A stretch of DNA of 31,459 nt from Phycisphaerae bacterium (GTDB taxonomy: Bacteria > Planctomycetota > Phycisphaerae > UBA1845), in assembly GCA_046754365.1 (NCBI GenBank), contig JBHHVO010000001.1:1-31459 (forward strand), in the 5' to 3' direction. This document shows positions 5,183 through 30,593 of this stretch, in pieces. The stretch's first letter is position 1. The number at the start of each line of letters is the position of its first letter. The position numbers and the translations under genes are program-made. Under the pieces are notes generated by a model. It did not search any database. It worked only from the letters and a program-made list of their open reading frames with translations, and was not told the origin of the DNA.

Positions 5183-5189
5183 ACAGAGC

Positions 5190-5963
5190 CTACGTCGGCG
5201 ACGGCGGTTCGGCCGCATCATCCGCGGGCGGCGACACCGGCGACGCATCCGGCCCCGGAAGGCGAATCGTAAACGTCGTCCCCCGGCCGGGCGAACTCTC
5301 AAACGACAACGATCCGCCGTGCCCCGCCACGATGCGACGCGTGATCGACAGCCCCAATCCCGTCCCGCGGGCCTTGGTCGAGAAGAACGGACGCATGATC
5401 CGCGATGCGTCCTCCGGCGCAATGCCCGCGCCGGTGTCGGACATCGTCAGCGCCACACCCGCGCCGTCCCGCCGCACGCCGATGCGCAACGTCCCGCCGT
5501 CCGGCATCGCCTCCAGCGCGTTGAGCGCGATGTTGAGCAGTGCCTGACTGAGCTGGTCCTCATCGGCCGATACGTACAGCGCGTCGGATGGACCGTCCAC
5601 CTGCAGCACCACACCACGACTCCGCGCCATCGGTTCAATAAACGTCGCGAGCCGCGACACGACCTCACGCACGTTCACACGGATCAGGTGGAACCGACAC
5701 GTCCCCGTCAGGTTCAGGAATTCGTCGAACAATCCCTGGAGTCGCTCCGCCTCGCGTCGGACGACTTCGAGCTTGAGCAGCGCCCGCCGGCGCAGGGCGT
5801 CGGCGTCGCCGTGCTCGTCGCGAAGGTCCTCGGCCAGTAGCCGGAGGTTCACCATCAGCGTGGAAAGCGGGTTGCGGAGTTCGTGCGCGAGACCGCCGAT
5901 GAGCTCGGTCAGCTCGGACACGGTCTGATGGTTGGACGGTTGCTCGTGGGGCGGAGCCGACAT
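5190..5963 (-). CDS. Histidine kinase (HisKA + HATPase_c only, no sensor domain)
   Basis: H-box LAHELRNPL, N-box ALLNIALNALEAM, G1 SDTGAGI, F/G2 PFFSTKARGTGLGLSI. Ends 7 nt before the regulator start. ATG at 5963 (MSAPPHE). Confidence 0.9.
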   Translation of the reverse strand: MSAPPHEQPSNHQTVSELTELIGGLAHELRNPLSTLMVNLRLLAEDLRDEHGDADALRRRALLKLEVVRREAERLQGLFDEFLNLTGTCRFHLIRVNVREVVSRLATFIEPMARSRGVVLQVDGPSDALYVSADEDQLSQALLNIALNALEAMPDGGTLRIGVRRDGAGVALTMSDTGAGIAPEDASRIMRPFFSTKARGTGLGLSITRRIVAGHGGSLSFESSPGRGTTFTIRLPGPDASPVSPPADDAAEPPSPT

Positions 5964-6124
5964 GGTGCGGTTTCGGTGCAGCCTTGACCAGGCGCCTCTC
6001 ACGCGACGTGGCAAGCCGCCCTCCCATACGGCCGCCCTCCGATCCGGCGGCCCGGACACCGACGCATCAGCCGCGAAGCGGCCGAGGGACGTCCGGCGCG
6101 GCGGCCGTCGCACCGACAACCGGC

Positions 6125-10767: not shown

Positions 10768-11437
10768 CCAACCGCCCGGACCGACGCCGCCGGTGGTACG
10801 GGGCGGTTTCGGTCGGCCCATACGTCACAGGCCGTGGGCCCACGAAGAAAACGAGACGCGCATCGCGGAAGCGCGTGATGCGGGTTCGGGCTGGTGTTGG
10901 CACGGTGGATCGGCGCCCGCGAGGCTTTCCGGCTACTCGATATCCAGCCTCCGCGGGTGTGGCGACGGGCGGCGCGCGGCCGACATATCGGACGAGCGGT
11001 CCGCACGGGAGCGTGTGCCGCGGCAGCCTGGGCGGCATCGTGTCCGTCGTCGTGTAACAGGGCGGGCATCGCCGCGCCCGTGGCCGCTGGATCGGGTCAA
11101 CCGCGCACGGCGGCCCGTGCGCGGAGCCGGCAGCGCTGCGATGATAGTGCGTCATGCCCTGGTTTTCGGTTAGCATGTTCGCCGGCATGGAGCCGACCGT
11201 TGTACGCGTCTTCACGCGGCGGTGCGCCGCGTCCCGTGTGCGGCCCCCGCGGCTCGGGGACATGCGGTCGCGCACCAGCGCGTTGACAAGCGCGTGGCAC
11301 GCGTTTGAGTCCCGTGTTGCCACCGGCAGGATGCGGGTGCGACGCCCGCGGTGCGGACTTTTTCAAGGCGCTGTTACGGCGCGGTCCGCGCGGCGGGCGC
11401 CACGCGGTTGAGCAGCGTACCCGAGGAAACAACCGGT

Positions 11438-14400: not shown

Positions 14401-14701
14401 TGCGCCGTTTGCACCGCACCTGGCGGAGGAGCTCTGGCACCGGCTGGGACATGACGCGAGCCTCGCGTACGAGACCTGGCCGGTGTGGGACGAGGGCCTT
14501 GCACGCGACGAGGCGGTGGAGATGGCGGTGCAGATTCTCGGCAAGGTCAGGGCCCGCATCACGGTGGCGGCCGACGCCGATGAACACGCGGTGGAGGCGG
14601 CCGCGCTCGGCGACGCTCGCGTTCAGGCGGCGCTATGCGGCAGGGACGTCCGAAAAGTCGTCGTCGTGAAGGGGCGTCTGATCAACATCGTGCCCAAGTG
14701 A
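11438..14701 (+). CDS. leuS: Leucine--tRNA ligase with several insertions
   Basis: MFPYPSGAGLHVGH (HIGH), GFDAFGLPAEQYA, NWCPALGTVLANEEV, editing TTRPDT and GTGAIMAVP, LRDWIFSRQKYWGEPFP, TMPQWAGSCWYYLRY, GGAEHAVLHLLYARF, KMSKG. 1087 aa from the ATG at 11438. Confidence 0.97.
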   Translation: MTGTSTQERRGEYDFTRIEARWQRYWEEHETFRTPDPGDPGVRDRPKFYILDMFPYPSGAGLHVGHPLGYCATDIIARFKRMCGYNVLHPMGFDAFGLPAEQYAIEHNVHPAVTTRKNIDTYRRQLKMFGLSYDWSREIATCDPSYYKFTQWIFLRLFESWYDRTCRWHVGEGDEIVGRARPIATLESELAAGRWGVDDDLEIVRDRNAPGRREWADLSAVEQRRAIDHQRLARLDDIPVNWCPALGTVLANEEVDSEGRSDRGGHPVYRRPLRQWVLRITEYADRLLADLDALDWPEPLKLMQRNWIGRSTGAEVVFPLADRWTIEDGAWKCLDGSPSGPLCGAGVPHTIRVYTTRPDTLFGATYMVLAPEHPLVDRITTAGQRAAVDQYVEATRHRSDLDRTADAKDKTGVFTGAYAINPVNGARIPIWVADYVLMGYGTGAIMAVPGGDSRDFAFAVKFNLPIVAVVRPPADWIEQRLSALTAGMDVTAAAGFDEVARAFPELADAVATRRRRSADLADQTRAVLCDRVGIDRLIDHYVRRPRVWGDAFTGEGVSVNSPGEAPDADEGGAPDTAAVGGAPALGGTAARNASGGVIHRCPTPAGDARDARGVAVPGGVCRLDGLTTAAAQERMVAWLETNGVGRRAVNYKLRDWIFSRQKYWGEPFPVWHGEDGGTTAVDEAELPVELPPMDDFAPTPVADDAETPPEPPLGRAAAWRVAERDGHRYYRDLNTMPQWAGSCWYYLRYLDPHNTERFCDADVERYWMPVDLYVGGAEHAVLHLLYARFWHKVLFDLGFVSTREPFRRLFNQGKIQSFAYVDRRGRKLSPEAVEARPPGRFVLKDTGEEVKQIVAKMSKGLKNVVSPDPIIAEYGADTFRLYEMYMGPLDTDKPWNTRDVPGLFKLCQRIWRLVVDPATGGVSPALTNDEPADAATLRVLHKTIKKVTGDLEQLKFNTAIAAIFDFVNALTPLERRPRAVIEPFVLLLAPFAPHLAEELWHRLGHDASLAYETWPVWDEGLARDEAVEMAVQILGKVRARITVAADADEHAVEAAALGDARVQAALCGRDVRKVVVVKGRLINIVPK

Positions 14702-16357: not shown

Positions 16358-16393
16358 TATAATCATACGCGTGGTGCGGATCGCGGCCGCACC
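16358..16393 (+). promoter_or_regulatory. Putative promoter of the MoxR cluster (-10 box plus 5' hairpin)
   Basis: Perfect TATAAT at 16358-16363, hairpin GGTGCGG-7nt-CCGCACC at 16373-16393, purine-rich SD at 16431-16440. No recognisable -35 box. Confidence 0.5.
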
Positions 16394-16448
16394 GGGCGAT
16401 CGCCGGTCGGTCTGGTGGGCCGGTCTTTCCAGGAAGGGAGTTTGCCGC

Positions 16449-17729
16449 ATGTCCTCAGGACCGCAGTCCGGTTCGGCCGGTGAGCCCGTCGCCGACGGCG
16501 ACGATTCGACCGACACGGGGGTACCCAGATCCGCGGGCGCGGAGACGGCGGCAGGGTCGGCACCGCCGGCCGGGGGCGCTGACGCGCTTGGCGCCGCTGC
16601 GCCCGGTGGGGCGACGGTCGCGTCCGTGGCCGCCGGCGGTGGGGCGGTCGTGTCGGACGCCGGGTCGGACGACGTAGCACTCGTGGACAAGCTGGTCGAT
16701 GCGTACACGCGGATTCGGCATGAGATCGCGCGGGTGATTGTCGGTCAGGAATCCGTCTTGGAGGAGATGTTGATTGCGCTGTTTTGCAACGGCCACTGCA
16801 TTTTGGAGGGTGTGCCGGGGCTGGCCAAGACGCTCATGATCAGCACGCTGGCGCGGTCTCTGTCGCTGAGTTTCTCGCGGATTCAGTTCACGCCGGACCT
16901 GATGCCGTCGGACATCACGGGTACGGAGGTCATCGAGGAGGACAAGGGTACGGGGACGCGCTCGCTTCGCTTCGTGAAAGGGCCGGTGTTCGCGAACGCG
17001 GTGCTGGCCGACGAGGTCAACCGTACGCCGCCCAAGACGCAGGCGGCGTTGCTTGAAGCGATGCAGGAGAACCAGGTGACGGCGGCGGGTTTCCCGCACC
17101 GGCTTCCTCGGCCGTTCTTCGTGATGGCGACGCAGAATCCGATTGAACAGGAGGGCACGTATCCGCTGCCCGAGGCACAGCTCGATCGGTTCATGTTCAA
17201 GGTGTTGGTCGACTACCCATCGGAGGATGAGGAGTTCCAGATCGTCAAGCGCACCACGGCGCCGGTGGACCGCGCGGTGGAGCGCACACTCGACGCGCGC
17301 GAGATCATCAGCCTGCAGGACATCGTTCGGCGCGTGCCGTGTGCCGATCATGTTGTCCGTTACGCGATGCGGCTCGTCCGCTCGACGCGTGTGGATGAGG
17401 GTGACGTGCCGTCGTTCATCACGGATTACGTATCATGGGGTGCCGGGCCCCGTGCGTCGCAGTACCTCGTGCTCACCGGCAAGGCGCGCGCGATCCTGCA
17501 CGGCCGGTACTACGTGTCGTCGGACGACATCCGCGCCGTGGCCCACCCGGTTCTTCGTCACCGGATCCTCATGAACTTCAACGCCGACGCGGACGGCGTG
17601 ACCAGCGACAACATGGTCGACAGGCTGCTCGATGCGGTGTCGCTGGATCCACCGGTTACGTTGGACGAGGGAATGGCCAAGCGCGTGTTCGCGGCGCGCG
17701 ACCCTGAGCGGCCGGGGGAGGCGCGATGA
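16449..17729 (+). CDS. moxR: MoxR-family AAA+ ATPase
   Basis: Walker [24 protein letters not shown], Walker [52 protein letters not shown]. About 75-aa Ala/Gly/Asp-rich N-terminal extension. The symbol is a family-level name. Confidence 0.95.
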
Positions 17730-17828
17730 CAACCGGGCGCGGAGGGATTTCGGCGCCACGGCGGTGCCTGACCCGGCGCCGCGCGATCTGCACCCCGTCG
17801 CCGCGCGACGTCCGAGCGGATATGTGAC

Positions 17829-18767
17829 GTGGCACCGGACGAACCGAACTACCGCAGGTATCTCGATCCGAAGGTGCTCGGCCGCATCGGCAACCTTGAG
17901 CTTCGCGCCCGCCTGGTGGTGGAGGGCTTCTTCAGCGGGATGCACCGGAGCCCGCGCCGCGGGCTTTCCATCGAGTTCGCGGACCATCGGGTTTATACGC
18001 AGGGCGACGACATCCGTCATATCGATTGGAAGGTCTTCGGTCGCACGGACAAGTACTACATCAAGGAGTACGAGCAGGAGACGAACCTGAATCTCATGCT
18101 CCTGGTGGACTGTAGCGAGTCGATGGGCTATCGCTCGACGAACGAGACGATGAGCAAGCATGCGTATGCCGCGACGATCGCCGCGGCGGTGGCGTACCTG
18201 GCGCTGCAGCAACAGGATTCGGTGGGGCTCGCGCTGTTTGACGACCGGATCACGGAGTTTCTCAAGCCGTCGAACAGCACGCACCATTGGCGAGCGCTGG
18301 TGAAGGAACTCGATCGCGGGACCGGTCGGGTCGGCACGTCGATCGATCGGGTGTTGGGTGAGCTGGCCGATCGACTCAACCATCGGACGCTGGTGTTCAT
18401 GATCAGCGACCTGTTGGACGCACCGGATGCGATCATGCGCGGTCTGAAGCTGTTGCGCTATCGGCGGCATGAAATCGTCGTGTGCGGCGTGTGGGACCGG
18501 GCGGAACTCTCGTTTCCGTTCACGGGACCGACGCTGTTTGACGGCTTGGAGGGATCCGGAACGCTGCTGACCGAACCGCGATCGCTGCGGCAGCGCTATG
18601 TCGAAGCGGTGGAGCGGTTTCACGCGCGGATGCGGACCGGTTGCAGCCACATGCATGCGGATTATGTGTTGTTCAACACATCGTCGTCGTTGGACGTGGC
18701 GCTGAGCGCGTATCTGGCCACACGGAGCGCGCGCATCCGCCAGCGAAGCTCGCGCGTGCTGGGATGA
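17829..18767 (+). CDS. DUF58 protein (vWA-like, MoxR partner)
   Basis: SGMHRSPRRGLSIEFADHRVYTQGDDIRHIDWKVFGRTDKYYIKEYEQE, then LLVDCSESM (DxSxS) and MISDLL. Confidence 0.92.
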   Translation: MAPDEPNYRRYLDPKVLGRIGNLELRARLVVEGFFSGMHRSPRRGLSIEFADHRVYTQGDDIRHIDWKVFGRTDKYYIKEYEQETNLNLMLLVDCSESMGYRSTNETMSKHAYAATIAAAVAYLALQQQDSVGLALFDDRITEFLKPSNSTHHWRALVKELDRGTGRVGTSIDRVLGELADRLNHRTLVFMISDLLDAPDAIMRGLKLLRYRRHEIVVCGVWDRAELSFPFTGPTLFDGLEGSGTLLTEPRSLRQRYVEAVERFHARMRTGCSHMHADYVLFNTSSSLDVALSAYLATRSARIRQRSSRVLG

Positions 18768-18940
18768 GCCAGAGGACGCGTGACCGTGGGCCGGGACCAC
18801 GGGGTCCCGACGTTGAGACGACATGGGATACGCACTCGTGTCATGTGGCCGTGTGGACCGGCGCCGGCATGGGTTGACGGTCGGCGGTGTGCGGGTGATG
18901 TGTTGATAGCCCTCGTCGCGGTGGTCCTGGACGGTGCTCG

Positions 18941-21157
18941 ATGTCGTGTGCGGGGGTATTGGCGGTGGCGTTTCTTCATCCCGGACTCGCCGGTGCGGCG
19001 CTGGCGGCCGGTCTGGTTCCGATTCTGATCCATCTGATCAACCGTCGGCGCTACCGCCGGGTGTCGTGGGCGGCGATGTCGTTCCTGTTGGCGGCGAGCA
19101 AGCGAAGTATCCGTCGCGTTCGGCTCGAGCAGTGGCTGTTGTTGCTGGCGCGCGTGGCGCCTGTGGTTTTGCTGGGCCTTGCGCTCGCCCGGCCGTACGT
19201 CCCGGCGTCCGGTCTTGTTTCGCTCGGGGTGTCGCGGTCTCATCGCGTGGTCGTCATCGACAACTCGATGTCGATGAACGCGCGGTATGACGCGGCGCCG
19301 GGATCGGCCGGGGACAGGACGCGGTTTTCCGTCGCGATGGCCACGGCGAAACGGCTGGTGGCGTCGTTCCCGATGAAGGACGCCGTGAGCGTCGTCACAC
19401 TGGCCGCACCGGCGCACGCCGTGCTCGCACAGGCCGGGTATGATCGGCGATTCGTAGAGGAACAACTCGCGAAGGTCGCGCCGACGCATCGCGCCGCCGA
19501 TGTTGCCGGTGGGCTCGCGCATGCGCTTCGGATCGTGCGTTCGTCCGATGTGCCACCCCAAAACCGGGCCGTGTACGTTGTGTCGGATCTGGCGGGATCG
19601 ACGTGGCGCGCCGGTGCGTCGGCGGTCGCACCCGGACCGACGCAGGCGGCGCGGAGGCTCGCTGCGCTGGCGGACGCGGCGGCGGTGACCGTCGTGCGTA
19701 CGGCCGGCTCGGCGGAAGTCAACGCGGCCGTGACGAGCGTGGCCACGGAGTCGCCCGTGGTGGGGGTGAACCAGCCCATGCGCATCGCGGCGACGGTGAC
19801 GAACTTCGCCCCGCGCACGCTGCGCGGCGCGGCGCTTCAGGTGGCCCTGGATGGACGGATCATCCATCGGTTGAGCCTGCCCGCCGTGGAGCCCGGTGCA
19901 TCCCAGGTCATGTCGGCGACCACGCTATGCGCGACGCCGGACACGCACGCGATCTCGGCGAAGGTGGTGGGCGTGCCGGGCGACGCGCTGCCGGAGGACG
20001 ACGCGCGCCATCTTTCGATCACAGTGCGCCGAACGGTTCCGGTGTTGCTCGTGGACGGTCGTATCGGTCCGACGCCGCTTTCCGGGCAGGCGGGGTACCT
20101 GGCCACGGCGCTGGCTCCCAGACCGAGTGCCACGGACGTGTCACTGATTGAACCGAAGATCGTCACGGAGCTGGAGCTCGACGGGGAGGCGCTCGACCGC
20201 TACGACGTGGTGGCGCTCTGCAACGTGCGGCGGTTGTCCCAGGGCCAATGGAAGGACATTGCGGCCCATGTCGCGCGCGGCGGCGGGTTGATGGTGTTCG
20301 GCGGCGACCTGGTAAGCGTGGACAACTACAACCGGTTCGGCCATGCGGACGGGCGGGGCGTGCTGCCCGGCCGACTCGGGCGTCCCGCCGCGGCAGGTGA
20401 CGAGGCGGATGCCGGCGCCGGGATCGTGCTGGGCGACGAGCGCCATCCGATCGTCGCAGAGCTGGCCGCAGAGCCCAACAGCGGACTCTTCACGGCGCGC
20501 GTGGACAAGCATCTGACACTCGAGGTGACGCGCGAGGACGTGGACACACTGCTGCGCTACACGGATGCGGAACCGGCGATCGTGCTCGCTACGTTCGGGG
20601 AAGGCAGGGTGGCGCTGTGTACGACGACGGCCGACATGGCGTGGACGAACCTGCCGGCCAAGGGAGACTATGTGTCGTTGATGTCCAACATCGTGTCGTT
20701 CATCGCGCCCGCCCTCGGCGGGCACCGCAACGTGACCGTGGGGCAGATGGTCGTCGAGCCGCTGCGGCCCGCGCAAGCGTCGATGTCGCTGCGGGTCACC
20801 GCCGGCGACGGTCGGGCGGACGACGGACGGCTGGTACCGGATGGTGAAGACGGGCTCGCGCTGGCGTTCGGCCCGGTGGAGGACCCCGGCGTCGTGACGT
20901 GCGCCGTCGGTCCGGACCGCATCGTGTTCGCGGTCAACGTCGATCCAGCCGAGTCGGACATCGGTGGTGCGACGGGCGACGACCTCGAGGGGATCGCCGG
21001 AGCGGATGCAACAATCATCGACGACCCGTCCGAGCTAGAGCGACGGCACTACGCGCCCCGGGCCAGCGAGCTGGCGCTGCTGGCCATGTACGCCGCGGTC
21101 GCGCTGCTGTTTGGCGAGATGTGGCTGGCCATGCGGCTGGGCCTGCGCGGCGGCTGA
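18941..21157 (+). CDS. BatA-N / vWA / Ig-like / GATase1-like membrane protein
   Basis: BatA-type N-terminus PILIHLINRRR..VSWAAMSFL with two TM helices, MIDAS VIDNSMS, VSD, Ig-like ATVTNF strand, YDVVALCNV..GGGLMVFGG, C-terminal TM ending GEMWLA. Confidence 0.85.
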   Translation: MSCAGVLAVAFLHPGLAGAALAAGLVPILIHLINRRRYRRVSWAAMSFLLAASKRSIRRVRLEQWLLLLARVAPVVLLGLALARPYVPASGLVSLGVSRSHRVVVIDNSMSMNARYDAAPGSAGDRTRFSVAMATAKRLVASFPMKDAVSVVTLAAPAHAVLAQAGYDRRFVEEQLAKVAPTHRAADVAGGLAHALRIVRSSDVPPQNRAVYVVSDLAGSTWRAGASAVAPGPTQAARRLAALADAAAVTVVRTAGSAEVNAAVTSVATESPVVGVNQPMRIAATVTNFAPRTLRGAALQVALDGRIIHRLSLPAVEPGASQVMSATTLCATPDTHAISAKVVGVPGDALPEDDARHLSITVRRTVPVLLVDGRIGPTPLSGQAGYLATALAPRPSATDVSLIEPKIVTELELDGEALDRYDVVALCNVRRLSQGQWKDIAAHVARGGGLMVFGGDLVSVDNYNRFGHADGRGVLPGRLGRPAAAGDEADAGAGIVLGDERHPIVAELAAEPNSGLFTARVDKHLTLEVTREDVDTLLRYTDAEPAIVLATFGEGRVALCTTTADMAWTNLPAKGDYVSLMSNIVSFIAPALGGHRNVTVGQMVVEPLRPAQASMSLRVTAGDGRADDGRLVPDGEDGLALAFGPVEDPGVVTCAVGPDRIVFAVNVDPAESDIGGATGDDLEGIAGADATIIDDPSELERRHYAPRASELALLAMYAAVALLFGEMWLAMRLGLRGG

Positions 21158-21209
21158 TGTGGGGCGTCCGGAGTCGGCACCGACCGCGTTGCATCAATAG
21201 GGAGCGCTC

Positions 21210-23726
21210 GTGCGGGATGTGATTCAGTGGCTGTTGGGGCTTGAGCATATCCGCCTCGGGCGCGATGCGCCGATCGTGTTTCAATGGCAGCACGAGCCTC
21301 GGGCGTGGCTGCTGTTTTGCGCGGCGGTTGTGGGGGGGGCGTGCGTCGCGCTCGTGTACCGGCGCGAGCGCGTCTCGACGACGCGGCGTGTCGTGCTCGC
21401 GCTGTTGCGCTGCGGTATGTTGGCGCTCGTCGTGGCGGTCATCTGCCAGCCCGCGCTGGTGCTGCGGCAGGACCGCATCGAGCCCTCACATGTGGCCGTA
21501 CTGGTCGACACGTCGCGCAGCATGGCCGCGCGCGACGAGCCGACAGCGCCGGATAACGCGCCGCGGCCGAAGCCCGCTGCATCGATCGGCGCGGCGGGTC
21601 TGACGCAGGAAGAGATCGGACCTCGACCACGCGCGGAGGACACAGCCCGCGCGGACACGGCGGACGAGACAGAGCGTGTGACCGATGTCGGCGCGCCGGT
21701 GCGTCCGAGCCGCATCGAGCGCGCCCGCGAGGCGCTGTTGGGCAACGATGCGGCCGTGCTGAGGCAACTGCTGGGGCGTCACGCCGTTCAGTTGTACGGT
21801 TTCGCCGGCGGCACGGAGGCGCTGGCGTATGCCGGGTCGGTCGATGACTTACCGGCGCTTGTCGACGCCCTTGGCACGCTGGTCGCCGACGGCGCGAGCA
21901 CCGACCTCGACGGAGCGCTCGCGCATGTCATCCGTCATGGTGAGGGGCGGCGTCTGGCCGGCATCGTGCTGGCTACGGACGGGCGGTCGACGCAGGTCGG
22001 CGCGGCCCGCGCGTCGGCCGGGCTTCACGATGTGTTGGACCTTGCGCGGGGACGGAAGATTCCGATCTTTCCGATCCGTATCGGTTCCACGACGGTTCCG
22101 CCGGACATCGAGGTCGGCCCGCTGCGTGCGGATGAACAGGTCTTCGTCCATGACATCCTCGCGGTGGAGGCGGATGTGGCGGGTCGCGGACTCGTCGATG
22201 CCGCGGAGGTAACGGTCACGCTCACGGACGAGCGCACGGGCCTGCCGGTCGCGTCGAAGACGATGACGTTGACGCCGGCGGAGCCGGAGACGACCGTGGA
22301 GCTGCGGACCAAGCCGTCACAGTCCGGGCGCGTGCGTTATCGCGTGGAGGCAACGCCCATAGCGCGGGAGCGTGTGCGCTCGAACAACGTGGACCGGATC
22401 GACGTCAACGTGCTGGATGACCGCGTGGCCGTGCTCTACGTTGAGCTGTATCCGCGCTACGAGTATCGCTATTTGAAGAACGCCCTCCTCCGTGAGGAGA
22501 CGGTCGCGCTGAGCGTGCTCCTGCTGGAAGCCGACGAAGCGTTCGTACAGGAGGGCACGTATCCGATCCGGCGGTTTCCGGAAACGCCCGAAGAGCTCGA
22601 CCGGTTCGACGTCGTGGTGTTCGGCGACGTGGACCCGCGCGGCGGTTGGCTCACGCCGGCGCAGATGAAGATGCTGCTTGCGTTCGTCGGGGATCGAGGC
22701 GGGGGGTTTGCACTCATTGCCGGAGAGCGCTATGCGCCCCACCGCTACCGCGGCACACCACTCGAGAAACTCATCCCGGTACGCATCGATCCGGCGTTTA
22801 TGGGCCGGTATGAAGCGACGATCGTGACGAGCTTTCGGCCGAGGCTGACGTGGGAGGGACGTCACAGCCGCATCTACCGTTTCGCCGCCGATGAGGCCGA
22901 GAGCGCGGCGATGTTCGAGGCGCTGCCCGACCTGTACTGGGTCGCGCGGACGCTGGGCCCCAAGCCCGGCGCCACGCTGCTGGCGGAACACCCGACGATG
23001 CGAACCACGACGGGGCGGCTGCCGCTGGTGGTGATCGGGCGGTACGGCGCGGGCAAGATCTTCTTTCAGGCGACGGACGAAACCTGGCGGTGGCGCCGGC
23101 ACACCGGGGAGTTGCTCTACGACACGTACTGGGTGCGCGTCGTGCGCGAGCTAATGCGATCGCAGCGTGTCGGGCGCGATCACAGGTACGTCATTCGTAC
23201 GGATCGCCGGCGATACGCGTATGGCCAACCGGTGCGGACGCAGGTCGAGTTCGACGATTCGCAGTTGCTCGCGCAGCAGGGCGACGTCGTGGCGATCGCG
23301 GTTCGGGACGACGGCGCAGCACTGGTTGGACGGATCGACGCGCAGCGCGTCGCGCCCGATGCGGCGCTGTTCGAGGCGGTCTACGTGCCGCCACGGGCGG
23401 GGAGCTTCGAGCTGAAGGCGGCGGACATCACGCCGCGAACGGGTGATCGCCCCGTGTCGGCGCTGATCCACGTCCGCCGGGCCGACCTGGAATCGCGTCG
23501 ACCCGAGGCCGACCACGCCACGCTCGAGCGCATCGCCGACGTCACCGACGCCGTGGTCGTGGACCCGGAGGACGTGAGCGAGGTACTGGCCGGGATTCGC
23601 GATCGCAGCGCGCGGATCCCGGACGACGTTACCGAGCCGATATGGGACTCGAAGTTGGTTTTGGGACTTTTCGTTCTTATGATCAGTATGGAATGGGTGT
23701 TGCGCAAGGCGTTCGGACTCGTGTAG
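21210..23726 (+). CDS. Membrane vWA / Ig-like / GATase1-like (DUF1355-type) protein
   Basis: GGGAG SD, two N-terminal TM helices, MIDAS LVDTSRS, LATDG, FDVVVFGDVD..GGGFALIAG, YGAGKIFF.ATDETWRWR, C-terminal TM ending MEWVLRKAFGLV. Confidence 0.85.
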   Translation: MRDVIQWLLGLEHIRLGRDAPIVFQWQHEPRAWLLFCAAVVGGACVALVYRRERVSTTRRVVLALLRCGMLALVVAVICQPALVLRQDRIEPSHVAVLVDTSRSMAARDEPTAPDNAPRPKPAASIGAAGLTQEEIGPRPRAEDTARADTADETERVTDVGAPVRPSRIERAREALLGNDAAVLRQLLGRHAVQLYGFAGGTEALAYAGSVDDLPALVDALGTLVADGASTDLDGALAHVIRHGEGRRLAGIVLATDGRSTQVGAARASAGLHDVLDLARGRKIPIFPIRIGSTTVPPDIEVGPLRADEQVFVHDILAVEADVAGRGLVDAAEVTVTLTDERTGLPVASKTMTLTPAEPETTVELRTKPSQSGRVRYRVEATPIARERVRSNNVDRIDVNVLDDRVAVLYVELYPRYEYRYLKNALLREETVALSVLLLEADEAFVQEGTYPIRRFPETPEELDRFDVVVFGDVDPRGGWLTPAQMKMLLAFVGDRGGGFALIAGERYAPHRYRGTPLEKLIPVRIDPAFMGRYEATIVTSFRPRLTWEGRHSRIYRFAADEAESAAMFEALPDLYWVARTLGPKPGATLLAEHPTMRTTTGRLPLVVIGRYGAGKIFFQATDETWRWRRHTGELLYDTYWVRVVRELMRSQRVGRDHRYVIRTDRRRYAYGQPVRTQVEFDDSQLLAQQGDVVAIAVRDDGAALVGRIDAQRVAPDAALFEAVYVPPRAGSFELKAADITPRTGDRPVSALIHVRRADLESRRPEADHATLERIADVTDAVVVDPEDVSEVLAGIRDRSARIPDDVTEPIWDSKLVLGLFVLMISMEWVLRKAFGLV

Positions 23727-23849
23727 CCGCGCGCGGTCGCGCGCCCTCATTTGCTTGCCGGTGCGCGGCCGTGCCATGGTCCCCGCGCCGCCGGCCACGC
23801 GCCGTGGATGGCGCGCCGTACAGCACGCCATGTGCCGATAGATCGTGTG

Positions 23850-26800
23850 ATGCATAACGCCTGGCTTGAGGAATCACGGATACTCACACGCCTGACCGCG
23901 TTGCGTCGCACGATACGCCGCCGGTTGCTCGCGTATGGCGTCTGCGCGGTCCTGGCCGGCGGGATTGTGGCGTTTCTCGTGGCGGTCACGTTGGATTGGC
24001 TGTTGTGGTTGCCGGCCGCCCTGAGGGCCGTGGGGGTCGTGGCGTTCGTCTGCGGCTTCGTGGCCGCGGTCCGCCACTGGGTGTTCCGGCCGCTGTGCGC
24101 GGCGGTCACGGTGGATGAGATCGCCGGGCAACTGGAGCGACACTTCGGACATCTGCAGGACCGCCTCACGAGTGCGGTCAACTTCCTGGGCAACGCCGAC
24201 GCGGGCTCCCCGACCATGATGCGGCGGGTGGTGTTGAACACCGACCGTGTGCTCGACCACACGCCCCTGGCGTCCGCGCTGTCGCTCAGGCCGCTCGTCG
24301 TGCGCATGGTCCTGCTGGCGCTGTCGATGTCGGTGTTCGTTTCGATCGCTTGGTTCGGGCGCGATTGGGTACGGACCGGCATGTACCGCTACATCTACCC
24401 GATGGGCGAGATCGAATGGCCGCGCCGCGTGTCCATCGCGCCGCTGACCGGTCGCGAGACCGTCGCGATCGGCGATTCGTTGACCGTGCGGATGCGGGTG
24501 GTCCGCGGCCTCAACGACGCGCTCCGCGGCATCGTCGTCCTGCGTGATCCGGACGGGACGACCGCGTCGCTCGCCATGCAGCGTGACATCGACGGTACGT
24601 TCTACGCAACGATCGACGCGATCACGCGTGACGTCCAATACTGGTTCGAGGCCGGTGACGACAGCACGCAACGCACGTTGCAAACGATCCACGCCGTCCG
24701 CCGCCCCGAGGTTGCGGAGGCGCTCATTGAAATCCAACCGCCACCCTATGCGGCCGACCGCCCCGCGCGCGTGCGAACCCTGGACGCCACGCCCGTCCGT
24801 GCGCCCATCGGTGGGCATATCGTCGTGGCCGTGCGCGTGAGCAAGCCGGTCGTGACCGCGACAGACGCACCGGAGACGGGACTCAGGCTTGATGATGAGA
24901 CGTTCCTCCCGTTCACACCGGAAGCGGGTGACTCCGAGCAGCTCACCGCCAGGTTTCCCGTCGTCCAGGATGTCCGCTTCCGGATCGAGCTTGTCGACGT
25001 GCACGGTCTGCATAACCGCGGTTTTGACGTCTTCACCGTGGAGGCGATGCCGGACATGCCGCCGAGCGTGACGCTCGTGGAGCCCAAGGGCACGGTGGAA
25101 GCGACGACGAACGGCGCGGTGCGCGTCGTGGCGCGCGTCGAGGACGATTTCGGGATCAGCCGGCTTGAACTTCAGGCGGAAACACTCGCGGACGCGGACG
25201 TCCGCCCCGGTTCGCTGGTTCTGCAATCGCTGCTCGACCGCGTCGTGCCGGTGACCGACGATGCCGAAATCCTCGCGATGGCCCCGTACGACTGGCATCT
25301 CGCGAACCTGCACCTTGCAGCCGGAGATATCGTCGTCTACCGCGTCGTCGCCACCGACAACTTCGCCACCAGCCCGGACGGTGACGCGGCCGCATCGCGT
25401 CGTGCGCCCGGTCGTACCGGTGCATCCCGTGGCGCGGCCGGGCACACGGGCGCATCGGGCGACATGCGGATCAAGATCATCAGCGACGTCGAGTTCGAGA
25501 TACGCCTCCGCGATGATTTGGCCCTGCTCGAGGCGCGTATTCGTCAGGCGCGGTTGGACCAGCTCGACGTGCTCGACCGTACAACCACACTCGTTCGCGC
25601 CACAGACGGAGGCAGCGAATCCACGACGTCCGCGTCCCATGCCGAAGCCAGCCTGCTTTCGGTGCCGCAGCGGGACACGGCGGCGGCGCTGGCCGCTGAG
25701 CAAACGCGTCTCGTCCGTCGCGTACGGGAGCTGGCCCGGCGGTTCCGCGCGCTCACCGAGCGCATGGCCCGCAACCATGCCGGCGCGGACGACACGCGCC
25801 GCCGGATCGCCGACGCCGCCGACGAGTTGCTCCGTATCGCCACCGAACCGATGGCGACGGCGAGCGGCCACTTACGCGGCGTCAACGACGAACCCCGTGC
25901 CATCGCGCAACACGCGTCGCTGCGCACGGCGGCGGACCAGGAGCAGCTCGCCGCCGATGGTTTGGAGTCCCTGATCCGCACCATGACCCAATGGGGAAGC
26001 TTTCACGGTCTGCTCGCCAAGACCAAGGATCTCCTCGATCGCCAGCAGGCGCTGCGACGGACCACTACGGAGATCGGAGAAACCACGCTCGGCAAGCCGG
26101 TCGACGCGCTCACGCCGGAGGAACACGCCGAACTCACGCGAAACAAGAGGACGCAGGAACAACTCGGAGGCGACGTCGAGCAGCTTCTGGCGCGCATGAG
26201 ACAGTTGCTCGAGCAGACCGGAGAAACCGATCGCGCCGATGCCGCGACGCTCGAAGACGCGCTGCGGGCCGCGCAGTCGCGTGAGGTCCTCAAGCACCTC
26301 CGCGCGGCCGCGGCGGCGATCGAAGCCAATCGCACCGCGGCTGCGGCGATCGATCAGCGAACGGCGGAAGACGCGATCCGTAAGATCATCGACGCACTCA
26401 ACCAGCGAAACGATCGCCGACTCGCCGAGCTGCGGAAACACCTGCGCTCCGCCGAAGAACAAGTCGCCGACCTGATCGCCCAGCAGCAACTCGTCAGGGA
26501 TGCGACGGAGGAAGCGGCGCGGATGGGAACCGACGACACGACGTTGGGGCGCCTCGCCGACCGGCAGCATACGCTCCAGCGCAATACCCGACTTCTGGGT
26601 GAAGACCTGGCCGATGTGGTTCGCGCGGTGCGGGCGGCTCGTCTCGTACGTCAGGCCGTTGCGCCTATGGTACGGGCCGAAGACTCGCTCCGTACGACCG
26701 ACGTCGACGTCGCCACCGCGCGTCAGGACGATGCGCTCGCGACGCTCCGCGCTGCGCTGGAACAACTCGAGACCCTGGCCGACGAAACCGCACAAGAGGC

Positions 26801-27452
26801 AATGCGGCGTTCCCTCGCGCAGATCCGCGAGGCGCTAAGCGGCATGGTCGAGGCCCAGCGCAGCATCAACCGCGACATCGACGCCCTCGTGGCGCGCGCC
26901 GAAGGTCGCCGAAGACTCAGCCGGGCTCAAGCCCGGCGTGCGGCCAAGCTCGCTCGAGATCAGGCCGGCGTTCGCGCGCGCGTGGATGAGCTACGTCCCG
27001 AGCTCGAGAAGGTCGTCGTCTACGATTGGGCGCTACAGCGCGTAGCCGGCTGGATGGACACGGCGCGCGACCGGCTCGACCGCCGCGAGGTGGACGACGA
27101 GCTCGTCGCCACCACCACCCGCATCGTCCGCGAGCTCGAGAAGCTCATCGGCGCGATCGCGGAGACCGAGGCGATCCCGCTCCCGTCGGAGTTTGCCGAG
27201 GCGAACACCGGCGGCGGCGACGGCGGGCGCGGCGACGCGTCCGGCCACAAGCCGATCCCGACGATCGCGGAGCTACTCGTGCTCAAGGCGATGCAGATGG
27301 ATGTGAATCGCAGGACGCGCGCGCTGCACGACGCGTTCGACCCGGACGACGCGACGGAGCAGCAACTACGCGAACTACAAATGGTCGGCGAGGATCAGGC
27401 CGAGGTCCAACGCCTCACACAACGGGTGACGCAACGCGCGCGGCAGCCATAG
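23850..27452 (+). CDS. Large DUF4175-like membrane protein (3 TM, Ig-like domains, helical repeats)
   Basis: Three N-terminal TM helices, LQDRLTSAVNF, several beta-rich segments, DMPPSVTL, EDDFGI, then about 600 aa of Gln-punctuated helical repeats. ATG at 23850, 1200 aa. Confidence 0.8.
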   Translation: MHNAWLEESRILTRLTALRRTIRRRLLAYGVCAVLAGGIVAFLVAVTLDWLLWLPAALRAVGVVAFVCGFVAAVRHWVFRPLCAAVTVDEIAGQLERHFGHLQDRLTSAVNFLGNADAGSPTMMRRVVLNTDRVLDHTPLASALSLRPLVVRMVLLALSMSVFVSIAWFGRDWVRTGMYRYIYPMGEIEWPRRVSIAPLTGRETVAIGDSLTVRMRVVRGLNDALRGIVVLRDPDGTTASLAMQRDIDGTFYATIDAITRDVQYWFEAGDDSTQRTLQTIHAVRRPEVAEALIEIQPPPYAADRPARVRTLDATPVRAPIGGHIVVAVRVSKPVVTATDAPETGLRLDDETFLPFTPEAGDSEQLTARFPVVQDVRFRIELVDVHGLHNRGFDVFTVEAMPDMPPSVTLVEPKGTVEATTNGAVRVVARVEDDFGISRLELQAETLADADVRPGSLVLQSLLDRVVPVTDDAEILAMAPYDWHLANLHLAAGDIVVYRVVATDNFATSPDGDAAASRRAPGRTGASRGAAGHTGASGDMRIKIISDVEFEIRLRDDLALLEARIRQARLDQLDVLDRTTTLVRATDGGSESTTSASHAEASLLSVPQRDTAAALAAEQTRLVRRVRELARRFRALTERMARNHAGADDTRRRIADAADELLRIATEPMATASGHLRGVNDEPRAIAQHASLRTAADQEQLAADGLESLIRTMTQWGSFHGLLAKTKDLLDRQQALRRTTTEIGETTLGKPVDALTPEEHAELTRNKRTQEQLGGDVEQLLARMRQLLEQTGETDRADAATLEDALRAAQSREVLKHLRAAAAAIEANRTAAAAIDQRTAEDAIRKIIDALNQRNDRRLAELRKHLRSAEEQVADLIAQQQLVRDATEEAARMGTDDTTLGRLADRQHTLQRNTRLLGEDLADVVRAVRAARLVRQAVAPMVRAEDSLRTTDVDVATARQDDALATLRAALEQLETLADETAQEAMRRSLAQIREALSGMVEAQRSINRDIDALVARAEGRRRLSRAQARRAAKLARDQAGVRARVDELRPELEKVVVYDWALQRVAGWMDTARDRLDRREVDDELVATTTRIVRELEKLIGAIAETEAIPLPSEFAEANTGGGDGGRGDASGHKPIPTIAELLVLKAMQMDVNRRTRALHDAFDPDDATEQQLRELQMVGEDQAEVQRLTQRVTQRARQP

Positions 27453-27472
27453 CACGCAACGCAGAGAGGGAC

Positions 27473-28171
27473 ATGAGCATGCGGCGAAATCGCCTTGCAC
27501 CACGAACGCTTCGGGCGGTGGGCATCGTGCTCGGCGTCACCATCGCCGCGTCGTCCGGTCTGGCATCCGTGGCCCTTGCCGCCCAGGCACCACCGAAACC
27601 AGACGCGCCCAAGCCCAAACCCAGACCCAAGCCCGCGGGAGAGGACCTCTCCAAGAAACTCATCCGACAGGCCGCCGGCGATGCCGACGAAGACCTCATG
27701 TCCGAGATTATCCGCCTGATGGATGAGGCGTCGCGCAAACTCGCGCGCGATCTCGACGCCGGAACAGATACACAGGCCACGCAAGCGGCCGTCATGGCCA
27801 AGCTTGACGAGGTGATCAAACGGGCGGCCATGAACCAGCGCCGACCGTCCCAAAGCACACAGCAAACCCGCTCCGACAAACGCACCATGCCCAAACAACC
27901 GCACGACAAACGGGACCGTCCGTCCGGCGACACACGGCAGGACGCCGCCGCGCTCCCCACCGGCACCGTCGACGCCGGCAAGGGAAAGACGGACACGGAT
28001 ACCGCCGGGGCGTCCGGCGCGATGGGTGAGTGGCGCCGGACATGGGGCAACCTGCCCCAACGCGAGCGCGACGAGGTGATCCAGGGCCGCGGCGAGGCGT
28101 TCCTGGAACGCTACAGGGAGCTCATTGAACGATACTACCGTGCGCTGCAGGAGTCCCAGGAGAAACCGTGA
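27473..28171 (+). CDS. Secreted helical protein with WGxLP...YY C-terminal motif
   Basis: GAGAGGG SD, signal peptide ending ALA-AQ, Pro/Lys linker, helical core, Gln/Asp linker, tail WGNLPQRERDEVIQGRGEAFLERYRELIERYYRALQE. 232 aa. Confidence 0.78.
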   Translation: MSMRRNRLAPRTLRAVGIVLGVTIAASSGLASVALAAQAPPKPDAPKPKPRPKPAGEDLSKKLIRQAAGDADEDLMSEIIRLMDEASRKLARDLDAGTDTQATQAAVMAKLDEVIKRAAMNQRRPSQSTQQTRSDKRTMPKQPHDKRDRPSGDTRQDAAALPTGTVDAGKGKTDTDTAGASGAMGEWRRTWGNLPQRERDEVIQGRGEAFLERYRELIERYYRALQESQEKP

Positions 28172-29331
28172 ACACGCCCACACTGGAACTGCATCCACGC
28201 CGTCGTCCTGCACGGCGCGCCGCCTCGGCGTTGCGCACCGGTGCTGCATGGGTTGCCAGCCGGTGCGGGCGGCGGTGCGTCGCCGGTCCGCGCGGCCTGT
28301 CCAGATCCGGCCGGCGGTGGCTCGGCGTCGTCACGGTCGCGTGGTGCACGACCATTGCCACGGCGTTGGACCGGTCACCGCCGCACAAGGCGACACCCGT
28401 TGCGACGGAGATCACGCCGGAGCTCCGTGCGGCGGTTCGACGCGCGCTCGCGTGGCTTGCCCAGCAACAGGCGGAGGATGGATCGTACGGCAACCTGTCG
28501 CATTACGGCCCCCACGTCGGCATTACCGGTCTCGTGGGGCTCGCGTTCATGTCCGACGGGCACGTGCCGGGTCGAGGACGCTATGCCGATGTCGTGGACG
28601 GCTGCCTCCGGTTCGTGCTCGCGCACGGCTCCGAGAGCGGCCTGCTCGCGGCGGAAACGTCGCATGGGCCGATGTACGGGCATGGGTTTGCGACGCTCTT
28701 TCTGGCTGAAGTGTACGGCATGACGCCGCGGCGCGACGTACGGGAAACGCTGCGCAAGGCCGTCAGGCTCATCACGACGACCCAGAACGACGAGGGCGGT
28801 TGGCGATATCAACCCGTGCCGAACGACGCAGACCTTTCGGTTACGATCTGCGAAATCATGGCGCTTCGGGCGGCGCGCAACGCGGGCATTCACGTAGACA
28901 AGACGGTCATTGACGGCGCGATCGAGTATGTCAAGAAGAGCCAGAACCCCGACGGCGGCTTTCGCTACATGCTGCACTCGGGGGGGTCGCAGTTTCCGCG
29001 GTCGGCCGCCGGTGTCGCCGCGCTGCAATACGCCGGCATCTACGAAGGCCCGGAGCTCGAACGGGGCCTACAATATCTAATGAGGTTCCTGCCGCCGAAC
29101 GAGCAGGCGCTCGGCCACTACTTTTACGGGCACTACTACGCCGGCCAGGCCATGTTTCTCGCGGGTGACAACTACTGGCAGGTCTGGTGGCCCGCGGTGC
29201 GTGAGGAACTGCTCGGCAAACAGGCGCCCGAAGGCTTCTGGCGCGGGCAGGCGGGCACGGAATATGGGACAGCGATGGCGTCGATCATCCTTCAAATGCC
29301 GAACCGGCTCCTGCCGATCTTTCAAAAGTAG
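28168..29331 (+). CDS. Prenyltransferase/squalene-oxidase repeat protein ((alpha/alpha)6 barrel), probably exported
   Basis: QW-type repeats ALAWLAQQQAEDGSY, QNDEGGWRY, SQNPDGGFRY, QAPEGFW. Hydrophobic leader before LDRS. GTGA overlap with the upstream stop. Confidence 0.88.
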   Translation: MNTPTLELHPRRRPARRAASALRTGAAWVASRCGRRCVAGPRGLSRSGRRWLGVVTVAWCTTIATALDRSPPHKATPVATEITPELRAAVRRALAWLAQQQAEDGSYGNLSHYGPHVGITGLVGLAFMSDGHVPGRGRYADVVDGCLRFVLAHGSESGLLAAETSHGPMYGHGFATLFLAEVYGMTPRRDVRETLRKAVRLITTTQNDEGGWRYQPVPNDADLSVTICEIMALRAARNAGIHVDKTVIDGAIEYVKKSQNPDGGFRYMLHSGGSQFPRSAAGVAALQYAGIYEGPELERGLQYLMRFLPPNEQALGHYFYGHYYAGQAMFLAGDNYWQVWWPAVREELLGKQAPEGFWRGQAGTEYGTAMASIILQMPNRLLPIFQK

Positions 29332-30593
29332 TGTACTTCCGACGCGTCACACACGGTCCGTTCATCGTCTTGGCGGCGTTGTCGTGCGCCGCCGCGGTGG
29401 CACCACCCGCCGAAGCGTTCCGCAGCGCCGGCGACGTCGTCACCAAGACGCTCACCGAGGACGCCGTCACCGGCCGACTCGTCACGTTTTCCATCGCCGA
29501 CGGGCTCGTGCTCGGCGGTGCAGGCGGGCCGGACCGCAGGATACCCACGGACGATATCGTGCGGCTTACCGCGGCACCGACGGACACCGCCACGCACGTC
29601 GCGCCCCGTCCGCTCCCGGGAGAAATCACACTGCGCCTCGTCGGCGGCGACCTGCTCATCGGGCGCATCACCGGCATGAACGAGACCGACGAGGCCGTCT
29701 TCGTCCGCACGCGCGATCTCGGTGAAGTCGCGATACCGCTCGAGTCGCTTGTGGCGGCCGTCCGAAACGCACGCTCGAGGCGGGCGCTTCACGTGGGGCA
29801 AGGCCCCGACGGCGCAACCACGGCCCGACAGGCGGTACGCCCGTACGAAGACACGATCTTCCTTGCCAATGGCGACACGCTCACCGGCTTCGTCACGGCC
29901 ATCGACCCAGACGGCGTCGTCGTCGAGTCCGCCCGTGGCGAGACCACGGTAGCCCTGCGCCTCATCGCCGCCATACACTTCGCGGCCGCGGAGCCGCAGC
30001 GACTCGAGGGCAAACACGTCATCCTCACGCTCCTCACAAGCGGACGGCTGACGGTGACCAGCCTCAACTGGTCCGACGACATCATCCGCGCGACGCTCCG
30101 CCATGGTCCCGACGTGCTCATCGAGGCCGAGCGGGTCGCGGCCGCCGATGTCGTGGGCGGCCGGTGGGAATGGCTCTCCCAGCATCAACCCATCAGCTAC
30201 GAACACACGCCCATGCTGTCACTCGGGTGGGACTACGCCCGCGACCGCAACGTCCTTGGCCAGCCCATCCGCGTACGCGGCGAAACGTTCTCCCGCGGCA
30301 TCGGGGTGCACAGCCGCTCCAAGCTCACGTACGATCTCAAGGGTGCATACCGCGCGTTCGTCACGAGCCTCGCGCTCGATGATGCGAGCGGCCCGCTCGC
30401 CGACGTGACGGCGGTCATACAGGTGGACGGGCAAACGCGTTTCACCCGCAACGGCATCCGCGCCGGCGACATCGTCGGCCCGATTCGCATCGACGTATCC
30501 GGCGCGAAGCGTATCGAACTCATCGTCGATTTCGGAAGAAACGGAGACATCCAGGACCGATTCAACTGGATCGAGGCGGCGCTCATTCGCTAG
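29331..30593 (+). CDS. Exported protein with four small beta-repeat modules and a C-terminal NPCBM/NEW2 domain
   Basis: Signal peptide (FIVLAALSCAAAVA). C-terminal GETFSRGIGVHS.SKLTYDL.G.YRAF...ALDD....V...I.VDG.....I.IDVSGAKRIELIVD.G..GD..D..NW. One-nt overlap with the upstream stop. Confidence 0.88.
   Translation: MYFRRVTHGPFIVLAALSCAAAVAPPAEAFRSAGDVVTKTLTEDAVTGRLVTFSIADGLVLGGAGGPDRRIPTDDIVRLTAAPTDTATHVAPRPLPGEITLRLVGGDLLIGRITGMNETDEAVFVRTRDLGEVAIPLESLVAAVRNARSRRALHVGQGPDGATTARQAVRPYEDTIFLANGDTLTGFVTAIDPDGVVVESARGETTVALRLIAAIHFAAAEPQRLEGKHVILTLLTSGRLTVTSLNWSDDIIRATLRHGPDVLIEAERVAAADVVGGRWEWLSQHQPISYEHTPMLSLGWDYARDRNVLGQPIRVRGETFSRGIGVHSRSKLTYDLKGAYRAFVTSLALDDASGPLADVTAVIQVDGQTRFTRNGIRAGDIVGPIRIDVSGAKRIELIVDFGRNGDIQDRFNWIEAALIR

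Follow-up and report, generated by a model that had tools for sequence, protein, structure and literature searches.

An eight-gene MoxR-vWA cluster of Phycisphaerae with a split DUF4175 protein, an exported toroid and an NPCBM protein

Results

Eight co-oriented genes on a Phycisphaerae contig

We analysed a 31,459-nt stretch of DNA (hereafter the window) from a Phycisphaerae bacterium (GenBank assembly GCA_046754365.1, contig JBHHVO010000001.1, positions 1 to 31,459), which is contig C1 of a metagenome-assembled genome (MAG) with 65% completeness and 487 contigs. The cluster considered here comprises eight genes, g1 to g8, and a first-pass annotation of the window had described them as co-oriented, with gaps of about 20-170 nt and two overlaps at the end, and as encoding a AAA+ motor, three proteins with a metal ion-dependent adhesion site (MIDAS), three membrane-anchored proteins and exported proteins. 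Each of these statements was borne out: all eight open reading frames (ORFs) lie on the plus strand over 16449-30593, the intergenic gaps measure, in order, 99, 173, 52, 24-123 and 20 nt, the last two junctions being overlaps of 4 nt (g6/g7) and 1 nt (g7/g8), and the domains, DxSxS motifs and transmembrane segments agree with the description. The g5 ORF is open from 23751, with a likely start at 23850 that gives 1200 aa, as in the database copy. The features are as follows.

16358..16363, plus strand: TATAAT hexamer upstream of g1, candidate -10 element, read directly
16431..16440, plus strand: strong Shine-Dalgarno-like AGGAAGGGAG, read directly, 8 nt before the g1 ATG
16449..17729, plus strand: g1, cytoplasmic AAA+ ATPase of the MoxR Proper (MRP) type (AAA_3, AAA_lid_2)
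17829..18767, plus strand: g2, DUF58 protein, cytoplasmic vWA-like adaptor (DUF58, MIDAS DCSES)
18941..21157, plus strand: g3, BatA-type membrane vWA protein (BatA_N, TIGR02226, VWA_2)
21210..23726, plus strand: g4, second membrane vWA protein (weak VWA_2, transmembrane plan, DTSRS)
23850..27452, plus strand: g5, supplies the N-terminal and middle regions of the split DUF4175 protein (DUF4175 above cut-off)
27473..28171, plus strand: g6, small exported protein with a DUF4175-type C-terminal tail (tail alignment; no Pfam family)
28168..29331, plus strand: g7, exported (alpha/alpha)6 toroid (AlphaFold2 model, cyclase/prenyltransferase repeats)
29331..30593, plus strand: g8, exported beta-rich NPCBM/NEW2 protein (NPCBM match)

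Transcription of the whole block from one promoter is unproven, because a promoter scan found no full sigma-70 site upstream of g1; terminator-like sites were likewise not found by a scan of the intergenic gaps of g1-g8. The sequence is present in hydrothermal-vent DNA metagenome runs, and only such runs matched, with no RNA run among them containing the cluster sequence. The host is an uncultured planctomycete, the G+C content of the DNA is ~0.63-0.71, and homologues of the window proteins come from Phycisphaerae and Planctomycetota MAGs.

A MoxR ATPase with cytoplasmic and membrane-bound vWA partners

Domains were called by Pfam and NCBIfam profile searches of g1-g8, and transmembrane segments and leaders by a hydrophobicity scan. 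The g1 protein combines an AAA_3 core (2.7e-62, 208.9 bits, model positions 1-131) with an AAA_lid_2 domain (5.6e-17), and the Walker A (GVPGLAKT) and Walker B (LADEVNR) motifs could be read in its translation. With a DUF58 gene 99 nt downstream, g1 has the features of a MoxR ATPase, and by this AAA_3 plus DUF58 signature it is assigned to the MRP subfamily. Its orthologues are 67-79% identical. The first ~70 residues (16449-16660) are low-complexity and rich in Ala, Gly, Ser and Asp, and orthologue alignments start near residue 73; either this N-terminal extension is lineage-specific or the true start lies further downstream.

The g2 protein matches DUF58 (7.1e-49) and VWA_2 (2.1e-9) and, like g1, has no transmembrane segment in the scan, while g3, g4 and g5 have three each. 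DxSxS MIDAS motifs were read directly in g2 (DCSES), g3 (DNSMS) and g4 (DTSRS). In g3, two N-terminal transmembrane segments, joined by a basic loop in the cytoplasm, are followed by a vWA domain, a GATase1-like region and a C-terminal transmembrane anchor, with matches to BatA_N (5.8e-14, Pfam), TIGR02226 (1.2e-18, NCBIfam) and VWA_2 (4.6e-10) and a weak one to GATase1_like. The plan of g4 is the same, with a transmembrane pair (32-50 and 61-79), a vWA domain carrying DTSRS, a large body and a C-terminal transmembrane segment (816-834). Judging from the basic loops between the first two transmembrane segments and from the likeness to Borrelia BB0173, whose BatA-type vWA domain was shown experimentally to be periplasmic (PMC5700661), the vWA bodies of g3 and g4 would face the periplasm.

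The pairing of a BatA_N double-transmembrane MIDAS vWA protein with a second vWA membrane protein is that of Bat-type systems. The Bacteroides aerotolerance (Bat) operon and its spirochaete homologues (Borrelia bb0170-bb0176, Leptospira bat) share with the window a MoxR, a DUF58 protein and BatA/BatB-type periplasmic vWA membrane proteins (PMC5700661). Unlike Bat operons, however, the window encodes DUF4175, toroid and NPCBM proteins, and no BatC (TPR), BatD or BatE (SH3) domain was detected in g1-g8 at E <= 0.01 (Pfam). Related gene sets are the 'broadly conserved operon' RL3499-RL3502 of Rhizobium leguminosarum and alphaproteobacterial neighbourhoods, which include an MRP MoxR, a DUF58 protein, BatA_N-type proteins and a DUF4175 member; here the window differs in that its DUF4175 protein is split in two genes and a toroid and an NPCBM protein are added.

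A DUF4175 protein split into two genes

The first-pass annotation had treated g5 as a giant helical-repeat scaffold, a view that has to be revised, as g5 is one half of a split DUF4175 protein. Its DUF4175 (PF13779) score is 33.9 bits, above the cut-off of 27.3, and rises to 40.3 bits when a second stretch is counted; the match covers only model positions 190-378 and 665-752, which marks g5 as a divergent member; TIGR02302 in NCBIfam gave no match to it. In the AlphaFold2 model (mean predicted local distance difference test score, pLDDT, 82.5), a transmembrane hairpin is followed by a cytoplasmic helical segment of ~75 aa, a third transmembrane segment, three beta-sandwich domains of the Ig-like type (195-543) and long helices that span ~650 aa. 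A fold search with the whole model against the PDB returned generic tandem-Ig matches only. The 112 homologues of g5 are mostly ~1160 aa long and come from Phycisphaerae.

Neither g6 nor the C-terminal part of g5 matched anything meaningful in Pfam, even at E <= 10. The g6 protein, whose Atlas clusters contain Planctomycetota only, ends in a tail of ~40 residues, WGxLPxRxRDE..QG....ERYRxWIERYYRALQE, which is present in 31/31 orthologues and aligns with the extreme C-terminus of a single-chain g5 relative (P0109, 1801 aa; E 1e-5); tails of the Y..L..YY type also close the single-chain relatives P0110-P0112. Because the g6 tail thus matches the C-terminus of single-chain relatives of g5, g5 and g6 are, on this alignment, one DUF4175-type protein split into two genes, the second with an acquired leader. 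The window does not hold the single-chain form: the tail sits on a separate gene with its own leader, as g6 does in 29 of 31 loci, and the leader scored in the window copy too. An assembly error is not the explanation, because the split is kept in 31 loci.

An exported toroid with an invariant C-terminus

The AlphaFold2 model of g7 is a single (alpha/alpha)6 toroid of ~310 aa (pLDDT 81.7, predicted template modelling score 0.77). Foldseek matched it to squalene-hopene cyclase, single-domain cyclases, AprG, MstE, GH76 mannanases and thioester (TED) domains at template modelling (TM) scores of 0.5-0.66, and Pfam and NCBIfam returned squalene-cyclase and prenyltransferase repeats. Sequence similarity to solved structures is limited to the QW-type repeats.

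Orthologues of g7 are 52-77% identical (median 73%). Across paralogous toroids, which share 36-57% identity, the residues H172, Y214, R234, N238, Y267, Y320 and Y324 and an acid pair at 220-222 are conserved. The extreme C-terminus LPIFQ[KR] (window 29314-29331) was found in 28/28 orthologues, and all 14 toroid paralogues examined end in [LI]P[IL][FYM][QE], usually followed by K or R. This invariance suggests that the C-terminus may serve as a docking peptide. The leader of g7 is weak in the window copy, where no segment reached the transmembrane threshold, and scores in 27 of 28 orthologues. Export through the Tat system was considered, since MoxR could then have matured the toroid in the cytoplasm; RRWLG is present in the window copy, but several orthologues lack twin arginines, and a Sec-type leader is favoured.

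Of the named activities of this fold, those of a class II terpene cyclase and of a thioester domain were rejected. A class II terpene cyclase such as squalene-hopene cyclase shares with g7 the toroid fold, QW-like repeats and an acid pair at the DxDD position; unlike the beta-gamma didomain of squalene-hopene cyclase, however, g7 is a single domain with a Sec-type leader, reads DADL, and scores 36.6 bits against a TIGR01787 cut-off of 322.7. A genuine protein prenyltransferase beta subunit seems unlikely on motifs and scores: g7 reaches 26.6 bits with Prenyltrans (Pfam), right at the cut-off of 26.5, but of the Asp, Cys and His of a Zn site the candidate Cys228, though invariant in orthologues, gives way to Thr in some paralogues, and the cluster has no alpha subunit gene. 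As a thioester domain g7 has only a weak TED_complement match (0.0024) besides the likeness of fold, and after its conserved Cys the sequence runs [QE]-[IV]-M, so that position +3 lacks the Gln of CxEQ.

The AlphaFold DB clusters of the toroid (A0A2E7D1C9, A0A7Y5HIA5) contain generically named relatives, including toroids fused to an NPCBM-type module or named 'VWFA domain-containing'. Such toroid-NPCBM and toroid-vWA proteins are possible Rosetta-stone fusions.

The NPCBM protein

The last gene, g8, carries an NPCBM domain (PF08305; 2.4e-29, 102.5 bits against a gathering threshold of 23.9) at residues 281-418. Its Atlas clusters are ~420-aa NPCBM families from Planctomycetota and Verrucomicrobiota, and a leader scored in the window copy and in 20 of 21 orthologues.

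On contig C2 of the same MAG (L051:8555-12085), a LysM plus YkuD L,D-transpeptidase gene is directly followed by a g6-like gene and an NPCBM gene, a neighbourhood which hints that proteins of the g6 and NPCBM types work near peptidoglycan.

The block is co-inherited but modular

The alignment of g5 homologues served as the anchor for a set of 41 loci, each taken with flanks of up to 10 kb, in which genes were located by tblastn; presence was counted only over loci where the contig was long enough to test each gene. Among these 41 related Phycisphaerae loci, the order g1-g8 was held in nearly all testable cases, and the genes that flank the block in the window (LeuRS, a CYTH protein, a cytochrome c'-like protein and a Vut_1 transporter) were never found beside it.

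g1: present in 20/25 testable loci, median identity 75%
g2: present in 27/30 testable loci, median identity 65%
g3: present in 30/31 testable loci, median identity 46%
g4: present in 35/37 testable loci, median identity 49%
g5: anchor of the locus set, median identity 44%
g6: present in 31/33 testable loci, median identity 42%
g7: present in 28/31 testable loci, median identity 73%
g8: present in 20/24 testable loci, median identity 40%

The toroid is as conserved as the MoxR ATPase (median 73% vs 75%), with g3-g6 and g8 at 40-49%, and g8 is the least constant member of the cluster. The ATPase pair is missing in 5 of 25 loci and g6-g8 in 2, and these exceptions are real rearrangements, not masked sequence. 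A toroid-NPCBM pair also occurs away from any MoxR gene in G070 (L042:17304-19639) and in G043 (L046), two genomes of another class; both pairs lie among unrelated metabolic genes, beside a PSCyt/PSD1 and DUF1501 pair. We conclude that the genes are inherited together, but as separable modules. The earlier proposal of a single envelope system is upheld as far as a cytoplasmic motor, membrane proteins and periplasmic proteins are inherited together, and is weakened by the loci in which parts are missing or lie apart.

The families re-associate across Planctomycetota

The first-pass annotation had also stated that similar neighbourhoods recur in Planctomycetota, which both the locus comparison and a survey of 151 sampled Planctomycetota genomes confirmed. 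In this survey, where the toroid and g5-like lists comprised the best 150 matches of each search, the toroid family was found in 140/151 genomes and the g5-like family in 140/151, often in many copies. When the two match lists were compared by hand, at least 50 of the 151 genomes had a toroid gene no more than 5 kb from a g5-like one, a lower bound among the matches listed. The MoxR paralogues number 4 in the source MAG and 2-13 in five other genomes; the 7.4-Mb planctomycete G070 has 13 AAA_3 MoxR genes and 8 g4-like genes, several of them co-located.

A commoner type of cluster (type 2; locus L058 of G119 and locus L054 of G081) likewise holds a MoxR, a DUF58 protein, g3-like and g4-like proteins, a toroid and a g5-like protein in one block. 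Its order is MoxR, DUF58, g3-like, g4-like, a giant beta-propeller protein resembling pyrroloquinoline quinone (PQQ)-binding and BamB proteins, toroid, then a short g5-like protein of ~776 aa and, encoded separately, a helical protein of 943-1072 aa; in G119 the helical gene is followed by genes for a small protein and for a YfhO-like membrane protein. Thus, unlike the window, type 2 has a propeller before the toroid, the toroid before a shorter g5-like gene, the helical part as a separate gene and no NPCBM gene that we could see, whereas the window type has no propeller, a fused g5 of 1200 aa and the toroid after g6. The type-2 helical gene was linked to the g5 C-terminus by tblastn in L057 (8e-10) and L054 (9e-4); in pairwise BLAST, neither g6 nor g5 had a significant match to the small and helical proteins encoded at the low-GC locus L058.

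The source MAG itself contains a second, rearranged system. Contig C153 (L049:1-7750) carries a propeller (>1600 aa, cut by the contig end), a toroid, a MoxR and a DUF58 gene, and contig C145 (L050:1-7929) a DUF58, a g3-like, a g4-like and a g5-like gene; DUF58 is probably the point where the two contigs meet. The position of the toroid varies accordingly among systems: it follows g6 in the window, directly precedes MoxR in C153 and G136, and directly precedes a g5-like gene in G081, G145, G033 and G119. One set of families thus comes together in three or more gene orders, and twice, as paralogous systems, within a single MAG, which is strong evidence of a functional link among them. Because it re-associates with these families in at least three orders and lies within 5 kb of g5-like genes in at least 50 genomes, the toroid is a core component of the system.

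Taken together, the core of MoxR, DUF58, BatA-type vWA and DUF4175 proteins is of a known kind with an unsolved mechanism, and the split DUF4175 protein, the exported toroid and the NPCBM protein make the cluster a lineage-specific (Phycisphaerae) variant of a Planctomycetota-wide one. No paper describing the extended form was found in the literature searched.

Elsewhere in the window, the LeuRS gene lies upstream of the cluster at 11351-14701. A sigma-54 activator with a receiver domain stands beside a short histidine kinase (HisKA and HATPase_c only) at 3806-6119 on the minus strand and is unrelated to the cluster.

Discussion

Given this composition, we tentatively propose, with somewhat less than even confidence, that the cluster encodes a MoxR/DUF58-driven trans-membrane machine which acts on a periplasmic client or partner, most likely the toroid, much as the Mxa proteins act in methylotrophs. 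There, deletion of any of mxaR, S, A, C, K or L leaves the periplasmic methanol dehydrogenase without Ca2+, and Ca2+ added in vitro rescues it; MxaR is a MoxR ATPase, and MxaS, MxaC and MxaL are vWA proteins (PMC12276312). We suggest an Mxa-like way of working because g1 and the methanol-dehydrogenase MoxR both fall into the MRP subfamily, which also includes Rhizobium RL3499 (PMC3893208). Like the window, the Mxa set combines an MRP-type MoxR with DUF58/vWA and further vWA proteins, and its step concerns a periplasmic protein (PMC12276312). Unlike the Mxa set, however, the window has no methanol dehydrogenase genes and encodes in their place a DUF4175 stalk, a toroid and an NPCBM protein (no mxaF/mxaI or other PQQ dehydrogenase was found in the window with Pfam), and the likeness is one of function only.

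The Mxa precedent also makes the earlier statement that no client enzyme is encoded here doubtful, because in that set a MoxR/DUF58/vWA assembly does act on a periplasmic client, and the toroid is the best-conserved non-ATPase subunit of the window cluster. For the same reason, and because it follows the system through its rearrangements and has conserved polar and aromatic residues, we regard the toroid as the likely client or partner. In such a machine, a MoxR hexamer together with DUF58 would work on the cytoplasmic side, on the short segments that g3, g4 and g5 expose there, and thereby shift the state of their periplasmic vWA/MIDAS and stalk domains. These domains would hold a periplasmic client, for which the g7 toroid is the best candidate as client or partner, and might load it, mature it or put it in place, perhaps with a divalent cation involved; g8 may tether the assembly to envelope glycan. 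Where a genome has several such clusters, every paralogue would have a toroid of its own to serve and, in the commoner type, a giant beta-propeller protein of its own as well. How these proteins would interact, in which direction the machine would act and whether its step is one of metal loading, folding or positioning are all inferred.

Several observations weigh against this proposal. No metal or catalytic site was identified in g7; its DxDD position is not intact in the window (DADL) and reads D-S-D-M or D-E-G in paralogues, and Cys228, invariant in g7 orthologues, is Thr in some paralogues. The conservation of the toroid would fit a structural hub equally. The likeness of g3 and g4 to MxaC and MxaL is that of a shared vWA domain, and even for Mxa the action of the ATPase across the membrane lacks an explanation. 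Furthermore, 5/25 loci lack MoxR, and in G041 and G051 a long distance separates g5-g6-g7 from the g4-like gene; such separation of modules weakens the model of an obligatory single machine.

A reading close to that of the first-pass annotation is that the cluster forms a structural envelope scaffold without a client, in which the vWA proteins, the DUF4175 stalk with g6, the toroid and the lectin would brace the periplasm for integrity or shape and MoxR/DUF58 would assemble or remodel the brace. We consider this possible, though rather unlikely. The MRP protein RL3499 is important for membrane integrity and cell morphology (PMC3893208), and RL3499 and RL3500 are growth-impaired on complex medium (PMC5118466). 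The g5 model, with its Ig-like domains and long helices, would suit a stalk, the invariant C-terminal tails of g6 and g7 resemble docking motifs, and the g6-like/NPCBM pair beside the LysM L,D-transpeptidase on contig C2 also fits. However, up to 13 MoxR and 8 g4-like copies per genome are many for a single brace, and the stalk parts diverge (28-51% identity) whereas the toroid stays at 52-77%, a degree of conservation more typical of an enzyme or ligand binder.

Alternatively, the toroid might be an (alpha/alpha)6 enzyme of the glycoside hydrolase, lyase or epimerase kind that handles peptidoglycan-associated or captured polysaccharide, with the NPCBM module supplied in trans and MoxR/vWA regulating access, which seems to us improbable. 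The fold of g7 does match GH76 mannanases, an AGE-family epimerase and AprG at TM scores of 0.55-0.66, with a weak Pec_lyase match and a kept acid pair at 220-222; the toroid and NPCBM genes stand as a pair on their own in G070 and G043 and are fused in AlphaFold DB, and a YfhO-like membrane protein follows the type-2 cluster of G119. The fold is, however, too generic for assigning chemistry, the sequence matches only cyclase/prenyltransferase repeats and no CAZy family, and the presumed glycan-binding partner, g8, is the least constant member (20/24).

It is more improbable still that the Bat-type genes g1-g4, the DUF4175 pair g5-g6 and the toroid-lectin pair g7-g8 are independent modules that merely lie side by side with no common function: although parts are found apart in some genomes and the searches for a full sigma-70 site and for RNA runs with the cluster found neither, the same families come together again in at least three orders and in two paralogous systems of one MAG, the block is conserved where its flanks are not, the gaps are small and the last genes overlap. 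Finally, the cluster is hardly conceivable as an anti-phage or conflict system of the ternary MoxR-vWA-beta-propeller type, for although g1 scores slightly above the cut-off of the bpMoxR model (31.7 and 27 bits) and giant beta-propeller proteins occur in the paralogous clusters, the AAA_3 score of g1 (208.9 bits) is far higher, PADLOC families match 0/8 proteins, the vWA proteins are BatA-type membrane proteins with no effector domains among them, and the propellers are exported, PQQ/BamB-like and missing from the window.

Returning to the MoxR-driven machine, we may extend the proposal, though in this wider form it is quite doubtful: Planctomycetota would have multiplied a MoxR/DUF58 maturation machine to 2-13 copies per genome, each with its own toroid plus a propeller or a lectin, and the toroids would be a new family of periplasmic enzymes or receptors which need ATP-dependent loading from the cytoplasmic side. 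If true, these multiplied, toroid-dedicated machines would represent a general mechanism for energising the maturation of periplasmic proteins.

MRP-type MoxR operons (Bat, RL3499-RL3502 and Mxa) are among the most widespread bacterial clusters without a mechanism, and the planctomycete versions, being unusually rich in extra periplasmic partners, gene orders and paralogues, offer natural experiments on who binds whom. The cluster also draws attention to the exported proteins of the terpene-cyclase fold in Planctomycetota, a family that is very large and unstudied and is now annotated only as 'prenyltransferase/squalene oxidase repeat'. Should the toroid be the client, one could learn from this system by what means a cytoplasmic AAA+ ATPase governs the maturation of a protein beyond the inner membrane, which is the same question that methanol dehydrogenase poses.

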